Positions 18,970 through 24,296 of a stretch of 24,296 nt of DNA are shown one piece after another. The translations under genes and the position numbers were made by a program. The stretch is from a virus: IMG/VR virus record IMGVR_UViG_3300037245_003526, positions 1 through 24,296 of that record; one strand, given 5' to 3'. Under the pieces are notes generated by a model. That model had not been told where the DNA came from and ran no database searches. It saw only the letters and a program-made list of their open reading frames with translations. Positions within the stretch are counted from its first letter, which is position 1. Each line of letters begins with the position of its first letter.

Positions 18970-20121
18970 CTATCCATTTATAGCAGCGAGGGCATTTATC
19001 ATTTGCTCAGGAATGACCAACACACGCTCAACAACATCTTCCAGGATTGTCTTTGCATTTATGTTTTTCTCAAGGGTTGTGAATTTTGCAAGAGCATTAA
19101 ACAAACCCCAGCTGGTAATATTTGCACGCTGTCCTTCTTCTCCAAACGCTTCTGTAATAATAACAGAAATATCTTCACGTCTTTTCTTCCCAGCTTTCTT
19201 TTCGATAAGGTCCAGAAGTTTCATCATATCATCTTCAGTAACAGGACTTTGAATATTCGCAGTAATCATGTCACCAATATTCTGTGTGAAAACAGTAACA
19301 TATTCACCCATTGCTGAACTCAAAATAGTGGAGGCACCTTCGATGTGAATCTGACGAATGTAACCAAGTTTGTTCTTTGAACCGAATCTTACATCCCCAT
19401 CATCACCGCTACTGAAATACATCCCGAATGTAATATCCGCTGCCTTGGTTCCGTCATAACTATTTCTGACACTTATCATCGGAAATACATCTCCAACCTG
19501 GGCAACGTTCTGGGCATTTGAAATAATTATTTCATGTCTCATTGTGGCAAAATTTGCGGAGAGATAGTTCTCTTCACTAAATACCGGAGAACCAACTTCG
19601 GATAAAGACTCCTTTATTCTGTCAATCAGAGCAGCATTACCCTCAAACTTATAAAAATTGGATATTGGACCAACATATTTCCATACAGAATCAGCTGCAA
19701 TACTCTTTGTAAATATTGCAATATGAGGAATAAGGGTATCTGCTATTGGGTTATGTTCCCCACCCATTGTTACAAGATTCATATAAGCAACTTCACTGCG
19801 GGTATCAACATAATGAAAACAACCAGGAGATAATGTAACCAAACCCATATCAGTTGCTCTATCTGCAAAGTCCTTACGTACAGGATCTGCTGGTGCTTCC
19901 TGGGTATCTTCCCCGGCGTCTGTATCATCAGTTGTGTCAGTTGCTTCAGTTGCTTCAGGAGTAAGATCTCCCTCAGTCTCAGATCCGATATCATTAGCTG
20001 CAAGAGCTTCCTCAAGATTTTCAAGATTTTCAATATCAAGATCACCATTTGCTGCTACGTCTGTGTCTACATTTTCTGTACCTTCAGTTGCTACGTTTTC
20101 TGCTGCATTTTGATCAATCAT
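18970..20121 (-). CDS. DUF932/DUF945-like (phage/plasmid-like) protein with an ~80-aa acidic low-complexity N-terminal extension
   Basis: 383 aa. VRNSYDGTKAADITFG resembles the conserved NSHDGS..A core of the DUF932 family. The N-terminus is D/E/T-rich (TEATEATDTTDDTDAGEDTQEA). GC content is visibly higher than in neighbouring genes. Confidence 0.6.
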   Translation of the reverse strand: MIDQNAAENVATEGTENVDTDVAANGDLDIENLENLEEALAANDIGSETEGDLTPEATEATDTTDDTDAGEDTQEAPADPVRKDFADRATDMGLVTLSPGCFHYVDTRSEVAYMNLVTMGGEHNPIADTLIPHIAIFTKSIAADSVWKYVGPISNFYKFEGNAALIDRIKESLSEVGSPVFSEENYLSANFATMRHEIIISNAQNVAQVGDVFPMISVRNSYDGTKAADITFGMYFSSGDDGDVRFGSKNKLGYIRQIHIEGASTILSSAMGEYVTVFTQNIGDMITANIQSPVTEDDMMKLLDLIEKKAGKKRREDISVIITEAFGEEGQRANITSWGLFNALAKFTTLEKNINAKTILEDVVERVLVIPEQMINALAAING

Positions 20122-20201: not shown

Positions 20202-20576
20202 CTAATACCCTCCTTCTCCCTTAATAATTGTTATATTTTCAGGTACACTTCCTTCCTCTATTCCCTCATGACAAAGTGTAATCTCTGCACCTCCTCCTCC
20301 ATCACCTTCATCTGATGCTTGGAAGATTAATACTGTACCACCTCCTTCAATAATTTGTTTACATTGTTCATATTCTTCATTTTTATCAAAATAGTTTTCT
20401 TTCCATAATTCATCAAGCTGAGTAATAGTTTTTGCAACTTCTGAACCATGATCACTATATTCTACTTCATATACTGTAGTAATTGTTATAGGAACACTTT
20501 TAGCATTAGGATCCTTAATACCTAAAATAAATGAAGCACTTGATGAATTAGTTACAAAGTCTCCCTTGATTTTCAT
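20202..20576 (-). CDS. small acidic protein, TNSSS-leader paralog 1 (MKIKGDFVTNSSSASF...)
   Basis: 124-aa ORF. The GGAGGG SD lies inside the end of the upstream lipoprotein gene. The N-terminal 16 aa are shared with the 21809..22198 and 23525..23884 products. Confidence 0.8.
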   Translation of the reverse strand: MKIKGDFVTNSSSASFILGIKDPNAKSVPITITTVYEVEYSDHGSEVAKTITQLDELWKENYFDKNEEYEQCKQIIEGGGTVLIFQASDEGDGGGGAEITLCHEGIEEGSVPENITIIKGEGGY

Positions 20577-20579
20577 TTA

Positions 20580-21164
20580 TCACCCTCCACAAGATATAGA
20601 TTTATAATCACCCCATTCATCTTCTACTGCTACATAATAAAGTTTTCTACCAATATAAAGTATAACCTTACTATCACCTTCTTTCCTTTCACAGTCCAAT
20701 AATAAATCATTTGAAAATTTAAATGATTCAAACTCATCTGATTGATCCCCACTTGAAGGAGCCGTATAATTATCAGTACCTATCAAACGAGCATACCATT
20801 CAGGGTCCAACTTATCAAACTTGGCACCATCATATGTTTTAATATTACTTTCAGCAGTATATGAATGGGTAAGTACAGTATCATTTGTAGATATAATTAT
20901 ATCCTTAATATCTATAAATGCCATAGCTGATTCTGATGGTTTAACTTTTCTCTGTCTTATTGCTTCTCTAACAAAATTTAGACGATCAGTTCTACCACTA
21001 CCCTTTGAATATCCCCATACATCAGCACATTTATCATATAATATTTTTTCTTTCATTGTCATTTTTTCAAAGGTTAGATTATACTTTTCCTCACCTTCAA
21101 TAGAATCACATCCAGTAAATAATAACAACAACATAAGGGGAATAAAAAGCATTATGTATTTCAT
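20580..21164 (-). CDS. putative lipoprotein
   Basis: 194 aa. The N-terminus MKYIMLFIPLMLLLLFTGCDS gives a signal peptide plus lipobox (FTG|C). Confidence 0.75.
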   Translation of the reverse strand: MKYIMLFIPLMLLLLFTGCDSIEGEEKYNLTFEKMTMKEKILYDKCADVWGYSKGSGRTDRLNFVREAIRQRKVKPSESAMAFIDIKDIIISTNDTVLTHSYTAESNIKTYDGAKFDKLDPEWYARLIGTDNYTAPSSGDQSDEFESFKFSNDLLLDCERKEGDSKVILYIGRKLYYVAVEDEWGDYKSISCGG

Positions 21165-21191
21165 AAATCATTTCCTTTCACTTTTCAAGGT

Positions 21192-21809
21192 TTATTTAAT
21201 TCTTTCAGCAATAAATCTAAGATAAATATCTCTACCATCAAATTCAAAATTTTCATCAAGATGCATTAATCTAAATCTTCCTTCATAGGTAAAGAAAAAG
21301 TTAGCTCGTTCTTTTGTCCATATTGAAGCATGTGGGCAAGATGGTTCATTAAGGAGTTCATAGGTGAGAGTTATGTTATGCTTTAAAAAATCAATATCTA
21401 ATACTTTCTCATTTAAAAGCATGTTTGCTAAAATTTTATAATTAGGAACAATTATATCAAGTATCCCTCCTATTTTTAAAGCAGTACTCATTTGATAGAT
21501 AGCAGATAAGACATCACTCTCAGGGATATGTTCAAGAAATCTATATGCAACTATCTTATCAACTTGAAAATTAATTCCATTTAAAACTTTAAACACATCA
21601 TCATCAAGATATATAATTCTGCTTTTATCTCTTGGTTCATCCTCTATTGACCATCTAGTTACCATATCCCTAAGATCTGCTAATCTTTCCCCAGTAAAAT
21701 AACCAGTATCAATATTAATAAGAAAATATGGATTCTTCAACTCCAAAGGTAATAGTTTACCTGCTCCTAAATTTAAAATAACTTCTTCTCTCATTCTACC
21801 CCCTTTCAT
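21192..21809 (-). CDS. class I SAM-dependent methyltransferase (substrate unknown)
   Basis: VILNLGAG (motif I), INID (acidic end of beta-2), DKIVAYRFLEHI and LKIGGILDIIVPN match the Methyltransf_11/23-type fold. No DPPY/NPPY or PCQ/ENV DNA-methyltransferase motifs were seen. The first ATG overlaps the upstream stop (TAATG). An alternative start at 21794 (MREEV) follows AAGGGGG. Confidence 0.75.
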   Translation of the reverse strand: MKGGRMREEVILNLGAGKLLPLELKNPYFLINIDTGYFTGERLADLRDMVTRWSIEDEPRDKSRIIYLDDDVFKVLNGINFQVDKIVAYRFLEHIPESDVLSAIYQMSTALKIGGILDIIVPNYKILANMLLNEKVLDIDFLKHNITLTYELLNEPSCPHASIWTKERANFFFTYEGRFRLMHLDENFEFDGRDIYLRFIAERIK

Positions 21810-22198
21810 TAACCATTATAACCACAATATGTTTGAGATGTTACTTCATCAATTGTTATGATAATTCCTTTTTCCTTTAGTTGTTTTACCACTCTTTCTT
21901 TTAACTGAGAAACAGTTTCATCATCCTTCATTTGAAAAGGGGATATTCCAATTTGAATACAATCACCATCATAATCATGATAATTAATTAGATCATTTCC
22001 CTTGCATACTAATTCTCCCAATTCATACATTTCTAGAGTCTCAGTAGTTAAGGCAGGATTTTCCGGATTGTCTTCGTTATGAAGAATAACCAATTCTTTA
22101 TCATATTCTTTTTTAAATTGGTAATCCTCCTTCAATATACCCCACGCTACAAAAGATGTAGATGAACTATTTGTTACAAAATCTGCTTTTAATTTCAT
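21809..22198 (-). CDS. small acidic protein, TNSSS-leader paralog 2 (MKLKADFVTNSSSTSF...)
   Basis: The ORF track starts at 22213 (MKGNNMKLK...). I place the start at 22198 because AAAGGA lies 6 nt upstream and the two paralogs start exactly at MK.K.DF. Confidence 0.8.
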   Translation of the reverse strand: MKLKADFVTNSSSTSFVAWGILKEDYQFKKEYDKELVILHNEDNPENPALTTETLEMYELGELVCKGNDLINYHDYDGDCIQIGISPFQMKDDETVSQLKERVVKQLKEKGIIITIDEVTSQTYCGYNG

Positions 22199-22238
22199 AT
22201 TATTTCCTTTCATTTTTTTAGTAAATAGACGGAATAAT

Positions 22239-22268
22239 GGGGGCAGATCCTAGCCTGGACCCACCCCC
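22239..22268 (-). other. GC-rich RNA hairpin between tRNA-Ile and the next ORF
   Basis: The minus strand reads GGGGGTGGGTCC-AGGCTA-GGATCTGCCCCC, a 12-bp stem including 3 G:U pairs. Those pairs become A/C mismatches on the plus strand, so the fold is strand-specific. No clear U tract follows (AUUAUUCC). Confidence 0.6.
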
Positions 22269-22279
22269 TCTCTTAGTAT

Positions 22280-22352
22280 TCATAACAATGGGAATCGAAC
22301 CCATGTTCTCATGTTTATCAGACATGTGCTTAACCAATTAAGCTATGTTATA
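22280..22352 (-). tRNA. tRNA-Ile (anticodon GAT)
   Basis: Cloverleaf drawn by eye. Acceptor TATAACA/TGTTATG (U1:G72 wobble), D-arm GCTT-AATTGGTT-AAGC, anticodon arm CATGT-CTGATAA-ACATG, variable AGAAC, T-arm ATGGG-TTCGATT-CCCAT, discriminator A. CCA is not encoded. Confidence 0.9.
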
Positions 22353-22353
22353 T

Positions 22354-22461
22354 TGGTGCAGTTACGTTAATAACCGCAGGGTTACATCAAAAATGCTTTT
22401 CATTGAGTACCAATCTAAATATGACAAATATCCCTTTGCTCTACCGCTGAGCTACACGCCA
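22354..22461 (-). ncRNA. tRNA-like RNA: canonical tRNA 5' acceptor strand and D-arm, then non-tRNA sequence ending in a 7-bp hairpin plus ACCA
   Basis: The minus strand from 22461 reads TGGCGTG TA GCTC AGCGGTA GAGC A AAGGG... No T-arm and no matching acceptor 3' strand follow. The RNA ends GCGGTTA-TTAACG-TAACTGC-ACCA (22377->22354), 1 nt before the tRNA-Ile 5' end. Confidence 0.5.
22402..22413. repeat. direct repeat copy 1 (ATTGAGTACCAA)
   Basis: 11/12 identical to 22554-22565. On the minus strand it contains a D-loop-like TTGGTAC box that starts exactly 60 nt before the encoded CCA end at 22354. Confidence 0.7.
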
Positions 22462-22471
22462 GTAATTAAAA

Positions 22472-22499
22472 AATTATATAAACTTTAATTTATATAATT
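22472..22499 (-). other. A/T-only perfect 11-bp hairpin in the linker between tRNA 3' and 5' fragments
   Basis: AATTATATAAA-(6 nt)-TTTATATAATT. On the minus strand it is followed by TTTTAATTAC and then the acceptor 5' strand. Confidence 0.7.
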
Positions 22500-22505
22500 A
22501 TGTAA

Positions 22506-22533
22506 TGGCTGGCGTGACGGGATTTGAACCCGT
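22506..22533 (-). ncRNA. tRNA 3' fragment: T-arm, acceptor 3' strand, discriminator G and encoded CCA
   Basis: The minus strand reads ACGGG-TTCAAAT-CCCGT CACGCCA G CCA. No complementary acceptor 5' strand or D-arm lies upstream of it. Its complement, TGGCGTG, lies 44 nt downstream instead. Confidence 0.6.
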
Positions 22534-22553
22534 GCATAGAGAAAAATTATATG

Positions 22554-22565
22554 ATTAAGTACCAA
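22554..22565. repeat. direct repeat copy 2 (ATTAAGTACCAA)
   Basis: 11/12 identical to 22402-22413, offset 152 bp. The minus-strand TTGGTAC box starts exactly 60 nt before the encoded CCA end at 22506. Confidence 0.7.
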
Positions 22566-22634
22566 CTATTGGGCAACAATGCATTTATAAGCTTGTTGGT
22601 TCGTAATTTAAAATAAGGATAATCTATCTGTGGA

Positions 22635-22652
22635 TCCAACATAATTGTTGGA
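22635..22652 (-). other. 7-bp perfect hairpin (TCCAACA-TAAT-TGTTGGA) in the non-coding leader upstream of the tRNA fragments
   Basis: Exact inverted repeat. It is enclosed by a longer-range complementary pair TTGGTTC (22596-22602) / GAACCAA (22684-22690). Each of those heptamers sits next to a copy of TATAAGCTTG. Confidence 0.5.
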
Positions 22653-22721
22653 CAGAAATAATGAGGAATATAAGTATAAGCTTGAACCAATTTCAATAAT
22701 ATGTTCTCATCAATTAAGTAA

Positions 22722-23510
22722 TTATCCCTTAATTGCGCCATGTATGTAACTAAATATTTCTTTACCAACCTGACGAGATTCAACTTCAGTTCCATTTGCT
22801 CTTTGCCTTGACCTCTTTATTGCTCGAGCAAGTTTATCAATCCTGGCAAGAATTGCTGATTTCTGAGATGGGGAAACCATACCGCACCATCTGTGTGTTG
22901 AATATTCACCAATTGCACTATTCTCAACCCACTCTTTTATCTGGGCAGGATGATGATCAGTGGCATCGTACATAACCTTACTTTGCTGAGTTTTTTCAGT
23001 TTTCTGATCCTTAACCATATTATCATCCTGAAATACTCCTTCACCAATATCAGGAGCTTCTACCCATTTTATTCCAGGAGGAAGTGTAGGAATCTTGCTA
23101 TAAACATCCCTGAGTGTACTCAACTCATACTCCATTTCAAGAAGAAATGTAACTGGAACATTTTCTGCTATTGTAATTCCATCCACAGCTATGTCCGATT
23201 TAGCAAGACAGTTTCCACTTTCCTTTTGAAGCTTGGCATCCCAGAATTTTATGAAGCTCTCGGACATATAGTCAAGTTTATCCTGAACTGTTGTGGTGAT
23301 TTCCTGATGTTCTTCAGTATTCTCTTTTTGTCTGGCATCATCAAACATCCTTAAACTACGATGCTGACCATGAAAATGAGAGACTCTCTTTAAAAATGTT
23401 TGCTCAGTCTCAGTTTTGATTTTTTCTTTTGCTCCTTTGAGACTTCCTACCACTGCCAAAATTTCGTGTAAAACTGGTTTTTTCTTAGACATTTTAAATT
23501 TTCCTTTCAT
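22722..23510 (-). CDS. hypothetical protein (262 aa), higher GC than neighbours
   Basis: Uninterrupted ORF. The first ATG has no SD. An alternative start at 23492 (MSKKKP) lies 9 nt after AAAGGA. No motif I can name. Confidence 0.75.
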   Translation of the reverse strand: MKGKFKMSKKKPVLHEILAVVGSLKGAKEKIKTETEQTFLKRVSHFHGQHRSLRMFDDARQKENTEEHQEITTTVQDKLDYMSESFIKFWDAKLQKESGNCLAKSDIAVDGITIAENVPVTFLLEMEYELSTLRDVYSKIPTLPPGIKWVEAPDIGEGVFQDDNMVKDQKTEKTQQSKVMYDATDHHPAQIKEWVENSAIGEYSTHRWCGMVSPSQKSAILARIDKLARAIKRSRQRANGTEVESRQVGKEIFSYIHGAIKG

Positions 23511-23524
23511 TAAATTAAAGTTGA

Positions 23525-23884
23525 TTAATCATGCTGAATTTCTATTCCTACTACTTTAAAACCATAAGCATCTTGATATTCAGATACAAAAGTATCAAGA
23601 GCTAGATACTTCATATAATCTGGTATATCTTCATAACCATTGTACATGGACGTCCATTCCTCTATAATAAAAGTATTTGGTTTTGAGTCCTCTTTAATAT
23701 CTGATCCATCCCAAAACCTCATATTTTTAGAAAATCCATGCCAATTATCGTTACCCTTAAACCATTCAATAAACTTACCGAATTGGTTTTTAAACTCTTC
23801 AATACCCGTATCTTCTTTTGTCTCCACTGTTAAAACAAAAGATGCAGAAGAACTATTTGTAATGAAGTCTGCTTTTGCTTTCAT
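23525..23884 (-). CDS. small acidic protein, TNSSS-leader paralog 3 (MKAKADFITNSSSASF...)
   Basis: 119-aa ORF with a strong AAGGAGGGAGGTG SD. Shares its N-terminal 16 aa with the other two paralogs. Confidence 0.8.
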   Translation of the reverse strand: MKAKADFITNSSSASFVLTVETKEDTGIEEFKNQFGKFIEWFKGNDNWHGFSKNMRFWDGSDIKEDSKPNTFIIEEWTSMYNGYEDIPDYMKYLALDTFVSEYQDAYGFKVVGIEIQHD

Positions 23885-23897
23885 ATCACCTCCCTCC

Positions 23898-24296
23898 TTA
23901 ATGATTGTTTTCCGCTATTATTATTAAATTGGGTGTTTCTATATTTATACCCGCCATATCCATAGCTCCAGAAAATTTTGTTCCAGAGATTTCACCATCA
24001 TTATCACCAATACCAATTGCAAAAACTGAATTAAAACCCTCTGCTTTTAATTCAATTATATTTTCTATAATATTATCATCAAAAGCTTCATCTAATGTTT
24101 TTATATTTGGAAACATCCAATGCTTCTTTTCACCTGGTTTATCTTCTCTTATACTCATATCAAGTTGTCGTATAAGGTCCCAAATATTGAATGAATAATC
24201 CCATAATTGATTATTAACCTTATCTTCAATTGTAGTTTTATTATTAATAAGAGCTTTATATAAATTAATCTTATCACCCTTAAATATAAAGATATA
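23898..24296 (-). CDS. hypothetical protein, N-terminus outside the window
   Basis: The ORF track starts at M (24158), but the same frame stays open to the window edge (...YIFIFKGDKINLYKALINNKTTIEDKVNNQLWDYSFNIWDLIRQLD-MSIRED...). The gene is therefore probably longer and truncated by the window. Confidence 0.65.
   Translation of the reverse strand, partial: YIFIFKGDKINLYKALINNKTTIEDKVNNQLWDYSFNIWDLIRQLDMSIREDKPGEKKHWMFPNIKTLDEAFDDNIIENIIELKAEGFNSVFAIGIGDNDGEISGTKFSGAMDMAGINIETPNLIIIAENNH

Follow-up and report, generated by a model that had tools for sequence, protein, structure and literature searches.

A conserved N-terminal tag on small acidic phage proteins, its linkage to radical SAM genes, and its possible role as the docking and modification site of a co-encoded maturase

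Radical S-adenosylmethionine (SAM) maturases of ribosomally synthesised and post-translationally modified peptides (RiPPs), including SuiB (streptide), PqqE, SkfB and MftC, are encoded next to a substrate gene carrying a conserved recognition or core motif, and in anSME/AtsB a radical SAM/SPASM enzyme modifies the serine of a short motif in a full-length protein. A potentially comparable arrangement is described here for a 24,296-nucleotide stretch of viral DNA (IMG/VR record IMGVR_UViG_3300037245_003526, positions 1 to 24,296; the whole of this stretch is subsequently termed the window), in which several small acidic proteins share an N-terminal peptide, the tag, and belong to an operon that continues beyond the window to a radical SAM (rSAM) gene. 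It is fairly probable that the tag serves as both the docking and the modification site of this co-encoded rSAM maturase, because an invariant and apparently disordered peptide placed at residue 1 heads unrelated protein bodies, because arrays of paralogs accompany each single enzyme gene, and because the linkage between tag and rSAM holds in both directions. The proposed mechanism is that a flexible N-terminal tag, M-K-x-K-x-D-F-[VI]-T-N-S-S-S-x-S-[FY], joined to unrelated or unalignably diverged domains, would act as a handle for recognition by an rSAM of the peptide-maturase (SPASM/twitch) class; that this enzyme would most likely modify the tagged proteins covalently within the invariant D-F-x-T-N-S-S-S; and that a single enzyme would handle many substrates bearing the tag, an arrangement familiar from RiPP and protein-maturation systems.

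The differences from these established systems are nevertheless considerable. Whereas RiPP maturases act on short peptides, the candidate substrates are folded proteins of 90–230 aa in arrays of up to seven, and most of the phage enzymes are without the second auxiliary-cluster motif; no RiPP recognition element or PqqD-like domain was identified in this system. The (C/S)-x-(P/A)-x-R motif of the sulfatases is absent from the tag consensus, which has no Pro or Arg in register, and the tagged proteins have no sulfatase fold.

Two further systems combine rSAM enzymes with STAND nucleoside triphosphatases (NTPases). The FxsA (FxSxx-COOH)/FxsB rSAM-SPASM peptide systems have been tied to conflict systems of the STAND (AP-ATPase) type (Kaur et al. 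2020, eLife, PMC7159879), FxsA being likewise a fast-diverging small protein with one conserved short motif, an rSAM-SPASM enzyme and a STAND NTPase for company, and a predicted rSAM modification. The FxsA motif, however, is C-terminal and freed by a zincin peptidase (PMC7159879), whereas here it occupies the extreme N-terminus of a folded protein, no conserved peptidase was present among the gene clusters co-occurring with the tag, and the tag family is mainly viral. In the KpAvs2 operon, an rSAM accessory judged not to be viperin-like (Avap1) accompanies a small accessory (Avap2) that binds Avs2, is needed for defence, and gave an HHpred match to DUF6375 (Bechon et al. 2024, Nat Commun, PMC11564622); phage-borne rSAM genes with tag arrays do not feature in that paper.

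The rSAM gene of the present system was located on a Logan contig (L114) that is 100% identical to the window over an overlap of the last 787 nt. The gene order on that contig is rSAM (339 aa), a 183-aa membrane protein, paralog 5, paralog 4 and paralog 3, after which the window adds a DUF7873 gene, a tRNA gene, paralog 2 and the remaining members, the whole set lying on one strand. A search of other genomes for the motif, as proposed in a preliminary description of the window, returned homologues carrying the tag (the pattern DF[VI]TNSSS occurs in 410 stretches of IMG/VR), and their gene neighbourhoods were tabulated. The resultant tag-seeded viral set comprised 81 loci, 79 from the IMG/VR pattern search plus two (L001 and L002) from the 147-kb contig JAANSX010849298.1. 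When all open reading frames (ORFs) from these loci were clustered, rSAM was the only broadly shared family besides the tag family itself.

Two unrelated types of rSAM were distinguished. Type 1, 40–60% identical to the enzyme of the source phage, was present in 45 of the 81 loci, always on the same strand as the tag genes and usually directly upstream of the first of them, ending 20–50 nt before it. Type 2, typified by a protein of ~348 aa containing CNLKCEYC (L052, 13274–14320; equivalents in L024, L026, L027, L032, L039, L042, L061, L069, L074, L076 and L077), was present in 13 other loci without the type 1 enzyme, where it again shared the tag strand and lay directly downstream of a tag gene in 12 of the 13. 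An rSAM of either type was therefore encoded on the tag strand in 58/81 loci, and about half of the loci without one were contigs cut near the tag gene. The reverse search yielded 232 rSAM relatives in IMG/VR, of which 78 loci were taken and inspected for tag ORFs within 5 kb: these were found in 54 of the 78, every one of the 112 tag ORFs lay on the rSAM strand, and shuffled translations gave none. Seven PLSDB plasmids contain a close rSAM homologue, and it is exactly these seven in which a tag protein is found.

The enzyme itself exhibits an rSAM core CX3CX2C (C56/C60/C63) plus five further conserved Cys residues, and matches both Pfam Radical_SAM (E = 2e-16) and SPASM. The full SPASM motif, CX3CX5CX3C, was present in the bacterial versions and in ~19% of the phage versions. 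Among relatives of solved structure it is closest to peptide maturases, namely SuiB (E = 2e-13), PqqE and SkfB, and the nearest NCBIfam models are MftC, WgkB and GeoRSP, all with scores far below cut-off.

The features of the operon, including those that lie beyond the window, are given below in order of position.

20202–20576, minus strand: paralog 1, 124 aa, isoelectric point (pI) 4.3, net charge −14, with its own C-terminal motif LCHEG...IIxGEGGY
20529–20576, minus strand: tag of paralog 1, MKIKGDFVTNSSSASF
20580–21164, minus strand: predicted lipoprotein, 194 aa, with signal peptide and LFTGC lipobox, MKYIMLFIPLMLLLLFTGC, 3 nt upstream of paralog 1
21192–21809, minus strand: weak class-I methyltransferase-like protein, 205 aa, LNLGAG motif
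21809–22198, minus strand: paralog 2, 129 aa, pI 4.5, with its own motifs MKDDET..FK and an IEExWxDG-type C-terminus
22151–22198, minus strand: tag of paralog 2, MKLKADFVTNSSSTSF
22280–22352, minus strand: tRNA-Ile (anticodon GAU), interleaved within the operon
22415–22553, minus strand: YrlA-like (Y RNA-like) element below threshold, at 33.4 bits (gathering score 69) and E = 1.6e-5
22722–23510, minus strand: DUF7873 protein, 262 aa, Pfam E = 7e-70, interleaved
23525–23884, minus strand: paralog 3, 119 aa, pI 4.5, with its own motif EWTSMYN...DIPxYM
23837–23884, minus strand: tag of paralog 3, MKAKADFITNSSSASF
23898–24296, minus strand: paralog 4, truncated at the window end so that the C-terminal 132 of its 147 aa remain, ...GDNDGEISG...ENNH
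24325–24693 in window-equivalent numbering, beyond the window (L114), minus strand: paralog 5, 122 aa, TTG start
24683–25234 in window-equivalent numbering, beyond the window (L114), minus strand: membrane protein, 183 aa
25238–26257 in window-equivalent numbering, beyond the window (L114 5521–6540), minus strand: rSAM gene, 339 aa

The three ORFs that the preliminary description had picked out by a near-identical start of 16 residues correspond to paralogs 1 to 3 at the positions listed, and its account of them as small acidic paralogs in a single operon was correct, the paralogs all having pI values of 4.3–4.7 and lying on one strand. The count of three was real, although a fourth copy cut by the window end, as well as the fifth and the rSAM gene beyond it, had been missed. 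The frame of paralog 4 is open from 23898 to the window edge, matches a subfamily of 147–188 aa, and reaches its tag, MKIKSDFITNSSSTNY, at a start 45 nt past the window end; the ORF listing gave only its last 86 codons, from an internal ATG. An in-frame upstream ATG at 22213 provides paralog 2 with an alternative start, and thereby a length of 134 aa. No further tag copies were present elsewhere within the window.

Paralogs 1–3 begin in common with M-K-x-K-x-D-F-[VI]-T-N-S-S-S-[AT]-S-F, and the remark that they could not be aligned past this leader was borne out by two methods: BLASTP alignments of the paralog pairs were confined to residues 1–17, 1–20 and 1–47 (E = 3e-7 to 4e-8), and only the first 18–47 columns of the subfamily profiles were aligned by hhalign. 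Each paralog heads its own subfamily of homologues, in which the tag is kept and the C-terminal motifs are subfamily-specific. Between paralogs, 3–8 of the 11–13 identical residues are encoded by different codons, with serines swapping between TCN and AGY; this synonymous turnover indicates that selection has acted on the peptide and not on the DNA.

On a wider scale, a family profile searched against 1.84 billion cluster representatives (50% identity clusters) gave 7,773 matches at E ≤ 1e-3 and 918 at E ≤ 1e-10. The 81 viral loci contained 238 tag ORFs, 214 of which had a Met exactly 5 residues before the Asp; 61 loci had between 2 and 7 copies, and in every multi-copy locus the copies shared one strand. 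The proteins were mostly of 90–230 aa, with a median net charge of −10. Additionally, the tag directly heads Zn-ribbon (CxxC...CxxC) proteins (L062, L064, L073 and L075) and a 458-aa BspA-type leucine-rich repeat (LRR) protein (L057/L058, 8001–9377), the variant of this Zn-ribbon/LRR clade having Arg at position 4 and SSSSS. Across members from phages, bacteria and archaeal metagenome-assembled genome (MAG) contigs, overall identity was 30–40% and the tag peptide was conserved. Arrays of 3–6 tag paralogs were also observed on MAG contigs assigned to Promethearchaeota (L082 and L100, the latter with an rSAM gene in mid-array) and Thermoplasmatales (L083); these Asgard and Thermoplasmatales contigs may be archaeal viruses or mis-binned phage contigs.

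The earlier statement that the motif could be assigned to no family was upheld within the sets scanned. Pfam gave no family match for the window paralogs and no consistent family for 150 diverse members or for the tagged and tag-less proteins of bacteria, PHROGs gave no match for the three window paralogs, NCBIfam gave none for these three or for a bacterial tag protein (L088), PADLOC gave none for paralog 2 or the same bacterial protein, and a search of PDB sequences with the tag-family profile was equally negative. Homology to a known housekeeping or structural family, an outcome named beforehand as a refutation, was sought and none was found. The bacterial members are named 'hypothetical protein' by both NCBI and UniRef, and literature searches turned up nothing specific on the motif, on DUF7873, or on SMEK in conjunction with radical SAM. 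By its sequence, the tag marks out a family of small acidic proteins that is very large and as yet without a name.

AlphaFold2 (AF2) models were confident for paralog 2 (predicted local distance difference test score, pLDDT, of 88, with 102 residues at or above 90) and moderate for paralog 3 (pLDDT 76), and in both the order of secondary structure was β-α-β-β-α-β in a fold beginning at about residue 14. The invariant residues of the N-terminus scored below 50 (1–12 in paralog 2; 1–10 in paralog 3), and the most conserved segment of the protein is therefore placed outside the monomer fold, the tag being predicted to be flexible or disordered.

A survey of bacterial and archaeal contigs, one genome per species, provided 32 loci, and in 23 of these a conserved cassette was recognised that comprised a STAND NTPase, a protein of 125–142 aa, a tag protein, and an rSAM/SPASM enzyme. 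Examples are those of Tissierella praeacuta DSM 18095, a Desulforhopalus chromosome, and the pAt plasmid of A. tumefaciens Ach5. The tag protein belongs to a single-copy subfamily of 131–139 aa ending ...IDATNxxW, and the small protein encoded upstream of it, detected in most of the 23 cassettes, proved to be a paralog of it that lacks the tag (hhalign 95.9%, E = 6e-9, 83 columns), with the following representatives.

L088, 5576–6004: tag-less paralog, upstream of the tag gene
L112, 5640–6017: tag-less paralog, upstream of the tag gene
L115, 5348–5713: tag-less paralog, upstream of the tag gene

Neighbouring cassette genes overlap by a few nt in L088 and L112, and the overlap of the tag-less and tagged genes suggests a heteromeric pair. 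The NTPase module matched the Avs2 model of PADLOC (E = 2e-24) and scored 55 bits with NCBIfam Avs2 against a cut-off of 1000, so that the similarity is confined to the NTPase module. The NTPase either has an N-terminal SMEK domain or is preceded by a metallo-β-lactamase (MBL) protein (PADLOC Avs1a/LmuA models) and a trypsin-like protease.

Like the KpAvs2 operon (PMC11564622), these cassettes bring together a STAND NTPase with an Avs2-like module, an rSAM and small protein(s), a likeness drawn from the published description of that operon. They differ from it in having two small proteins, one tagged and one a tag-less paralog, and in their effector domains, SMEK or MBL plus protease as opposed to the Mrr of KpAvs2; an hmmscan with DUF6375 (PF19902) of 14 tagged, 14 tag-less and 150 diverse members gave no match at E ≤ 1–10. 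No STAND gene was seen in the phage window.

As the bacterial version is an accessory module of Avs2-like STAND operons and the phage versions are diversified acidic paralogs, the matured proteins may act in phage–host conflict, perhaps in anti-immunity. A bolder extension of this idea, which we regard as rather unlikely, is that the enzyme performs a new rSAM modification on folded proteins, that the tagged and tag-less pair is a regulatory or accessory module of Avs2-like immune sensors of the NOD-like receptor (NLR) kind, and that phages took over the enzyme and multiplied the tagged proteins, the arrays of which would, once matured, be mimics or decoys that silence or divert STAND immunity. 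Anti-defence of this sort would depend on the modification, would be common among large phages not yet in culture, and would extend to contigs binned as Asgard and Thermoplasmatales.

The foremost rival to a maturation substrate, though in our judgement an improbable one, is that the tag is a docking strand: it would insert as a β-strand into the rSAM, the tag-less paralog or the STAND protein, or else drive hetero-oligomerisation or amyloid-like signalling as known for NLR-associated motifs, and the small proteins would be regulatory or adaptor subunits. Low AF2 confidence in a highly conserved terminus is indeed typical of segments that fold on binding, the overlapping cassette genes for tag-less and tagged paralogs point to a complex, and Avap2 of KpAvs2 physically binds Avs2 (PMC11564622); but a set of polar residues (D, T, N, S, S and S) that never varies, and whose spacing from Met1 is constant, is a feature more of enzyme recognition or core sites than of β-zippers, the rSAM linkage persists in phages with no STAND gene nearby, and the SPASM/twitch rSAMs of this clade are peptide modifiers. 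That the tag is instead a loop for catalysis or ligand binding in a fold common to all the paralogs, be it a small enzyme or a nucleotide sponge (for example a phage SAM-lyase-like, ferredoxin-like protein), is a distinctly slim prospect. A feature of the DNA itself, such as a site for recombination or cassette shuffling or an element for initiating translation, could account for similarity located exactly at gene starts in tandem arrays, yet has next to no credibility, given that the peptide is conserved over phages, bacteria and archaeal MAG contigs at such low overall identity; a DNA-level repeat is effectively refuted by the TCN/AGY serine swaps of the codon analysis.

T4 likewise has small proteins with nothing in common but a short N-terminal leader, their genes lying in a plastic region: the internal proteins IPI, IPII and IPIII and Alt carry a capsid-targeting sequence that starts MK...[DE]F[IV] and runs for ~10 aa up to a site for the prohead protease, [LI]-x-E, where the cut follows the Glu. 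The preliminary description had drawn on this analogy, according to which the tag would send the paralogs into the prohead and the proteins would be injected to counter host defences. The start of the tag bears a superficial resemblance to the T4 sequence, tag genes lie between baseplate and terminase modules in ~30 loci, and the proteins are small, acidic and diversified. The analogy nonetheless failed on several counts: neither a conserved Glu nor any other cleavage motif occurs in residues 1–24 of 181 distinct members, single-copy tag proteins reside in non-viral STAND-rSAM cassettes (on chromosomes of Tissierella and Desulforhopalus and on pAt plasmids of Agrobacterium) that have no structural genes in their vicinity, the consistent partner of the tag is rSAM and not a head or protease gene, and the tag does not vary between phages that differ widely in type and genome size. 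A packaging leader is consequently very unlikely, and it is the second suggestion of that description, a modification site in the Ser-rich stretch, that best fits the evidence.

Several observations nevertheless weigh against a tag that is docked and modified by an rSAM maturase. Around 30% of the tag-seeded loci have no rSAM within the flank, among them a fairly close relative (L001/L002, the 147-kb contig) whose three paralogs have no rSAM in the surrounding 10 kb, and ~30% of the rSAM-seeded loci have no tag gene within 5 kb. It is unusual for one tag to be linked to two unrelated rSAM families, if both must recognise it. The tag is without Cys or Trp, the residues used by the best-known SPASM cross-linkers, and the TNSSS motif is not, to our knowledge, assigned to any rSAM chemistry. 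Genomic linkage alone is fitted equally well by a substrate and by an obligate partner or regulator of the rSAM; an anti-defence role in the phage, entirely inferential at present, is a possibility. Finally, no cultured phage with a tag-rSAM module emerged from tblastn searches or from the neighbourhood of the rSAM homologue in Escherichia phage Lw1. Among cultured phages, tblastn with the rSAM yielded only an rSAM/SPASM homologue of 29% identity, carried by Pseudotevenvirus and by T4-like Klebsiella phages (Lw1 gp161, L194; Klebsiella phage Miro; ~170 other cultured T4-like phages). In Lw1, the sole such neighbourhood inspected, the small genes downstream of the rSAM do not carry the tag, and may be a different substrate set.

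On the maturation reading, the tag proteins are taken to be substrates of the rSAM rather than its partners. As to the residue modified and the chemistry involved, our guess would be abstraction of hydrogen from a C–H bond of Ser, Thr or Asn, leading to oxidation or a cross-link.

The lipoprotein call made earlier is plausible on the strength of the signal peptide and lipobox, and homologues were present in 10 related loci; the protein is a neighbour by position and at most a candidate member of the tag system. For the 'SAM methyltransferase', only weak matches were obtained (E = 0.0066 with Pfam Methyltransf_12, which is below cut-off, and E = 1e-4 with a PHROG methyltransferase); the gene overlaps the stop codon of paralog 2, and the coordinates verified this TAATG junction, one of the translationally coupled junctions proposed. 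It is syntenic in 17 loci, though not general across the tag family. The 'RNA cluster' of the preliminary description was reduced to the one tRNA-Ile(GAU), the only other match being the sub-threshold YrlA-like element. The parts of this element are, in order, a tRNA-like T-arm, a stem interrupted by 49 inserted nt, and a D-arm, resembling a 'permuted' tRNA, and it is a bystander outside the tag system. An 82-aa ORF (22547–22795) that overlaps both this element and the end of the DUF7873 gene is probably not a real gene. The DUF7873 gene was present in only 4 related loci, and is therefore not a core component. A scan of the locus for promoters and terminators gave promoter-like sites near the shuffle level and no terminators.

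The window has a G+C content of ~30% and forms part of a T4-like myovirus genome, with T4_baseplate, gp25, a T4-type large terminase and a DNA ligase among its gene content. A 244,552-bp contig encodes a protein 100% identical to paralog 1. By comparison with GenBank phages, the terminase reached ≤30% identity to any, and neither megablast with the window nor tblastn with paralog 2 gave a match. Adjoining the operon (18970–20121, minus strand) is the gene for a 383-aa protein whose N-terminal ~100 aa are very acidic and which matches DUF932 weakly (E = 9e-4); the local G+C content is ~0.40 as against ~0.30 for the window, and the gene keeps synteny with those of the tag proteins in 17 loci. 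A FolE2-type GTP cyclohydrolase I (GCHY-1) is encoded at L114 1131–1985, a few kb upstream of the rSAM, and also at L001 3216–4097, and may relate to 7-deazaguanine metabolism. In the same region of the 147-kb relative (L001, 1–2516) lies a gene for an Rpb2-domain protein of the RNA polymerase β-subunit family (domains 3, 6 and 7), of at least 1001 aa and running off the start of the locus.

The tag would unite in a single testable idea the small proteins of ~7,800 clusters now labelled 'hypothetical', and points to an unassigned radical SAM chemistry on the D-F-x-T-N-S-S-S motif. It also offers a hypothesis for the KpAvs2-type rSAM accessory, the two rSAMs being likened by description, namely that the enzyme matures a small partner protein. 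Cultivable entry points are provided by the pAt cassette of A. tumefaciens Ach5 (Ach5_RS23265 to RS23250) and by Tissierella praeacuta DSM 18095. The results suggest that many large phages carry an expanded form of the same enzyme–substrate module, possibly deployed in counter-immunity.

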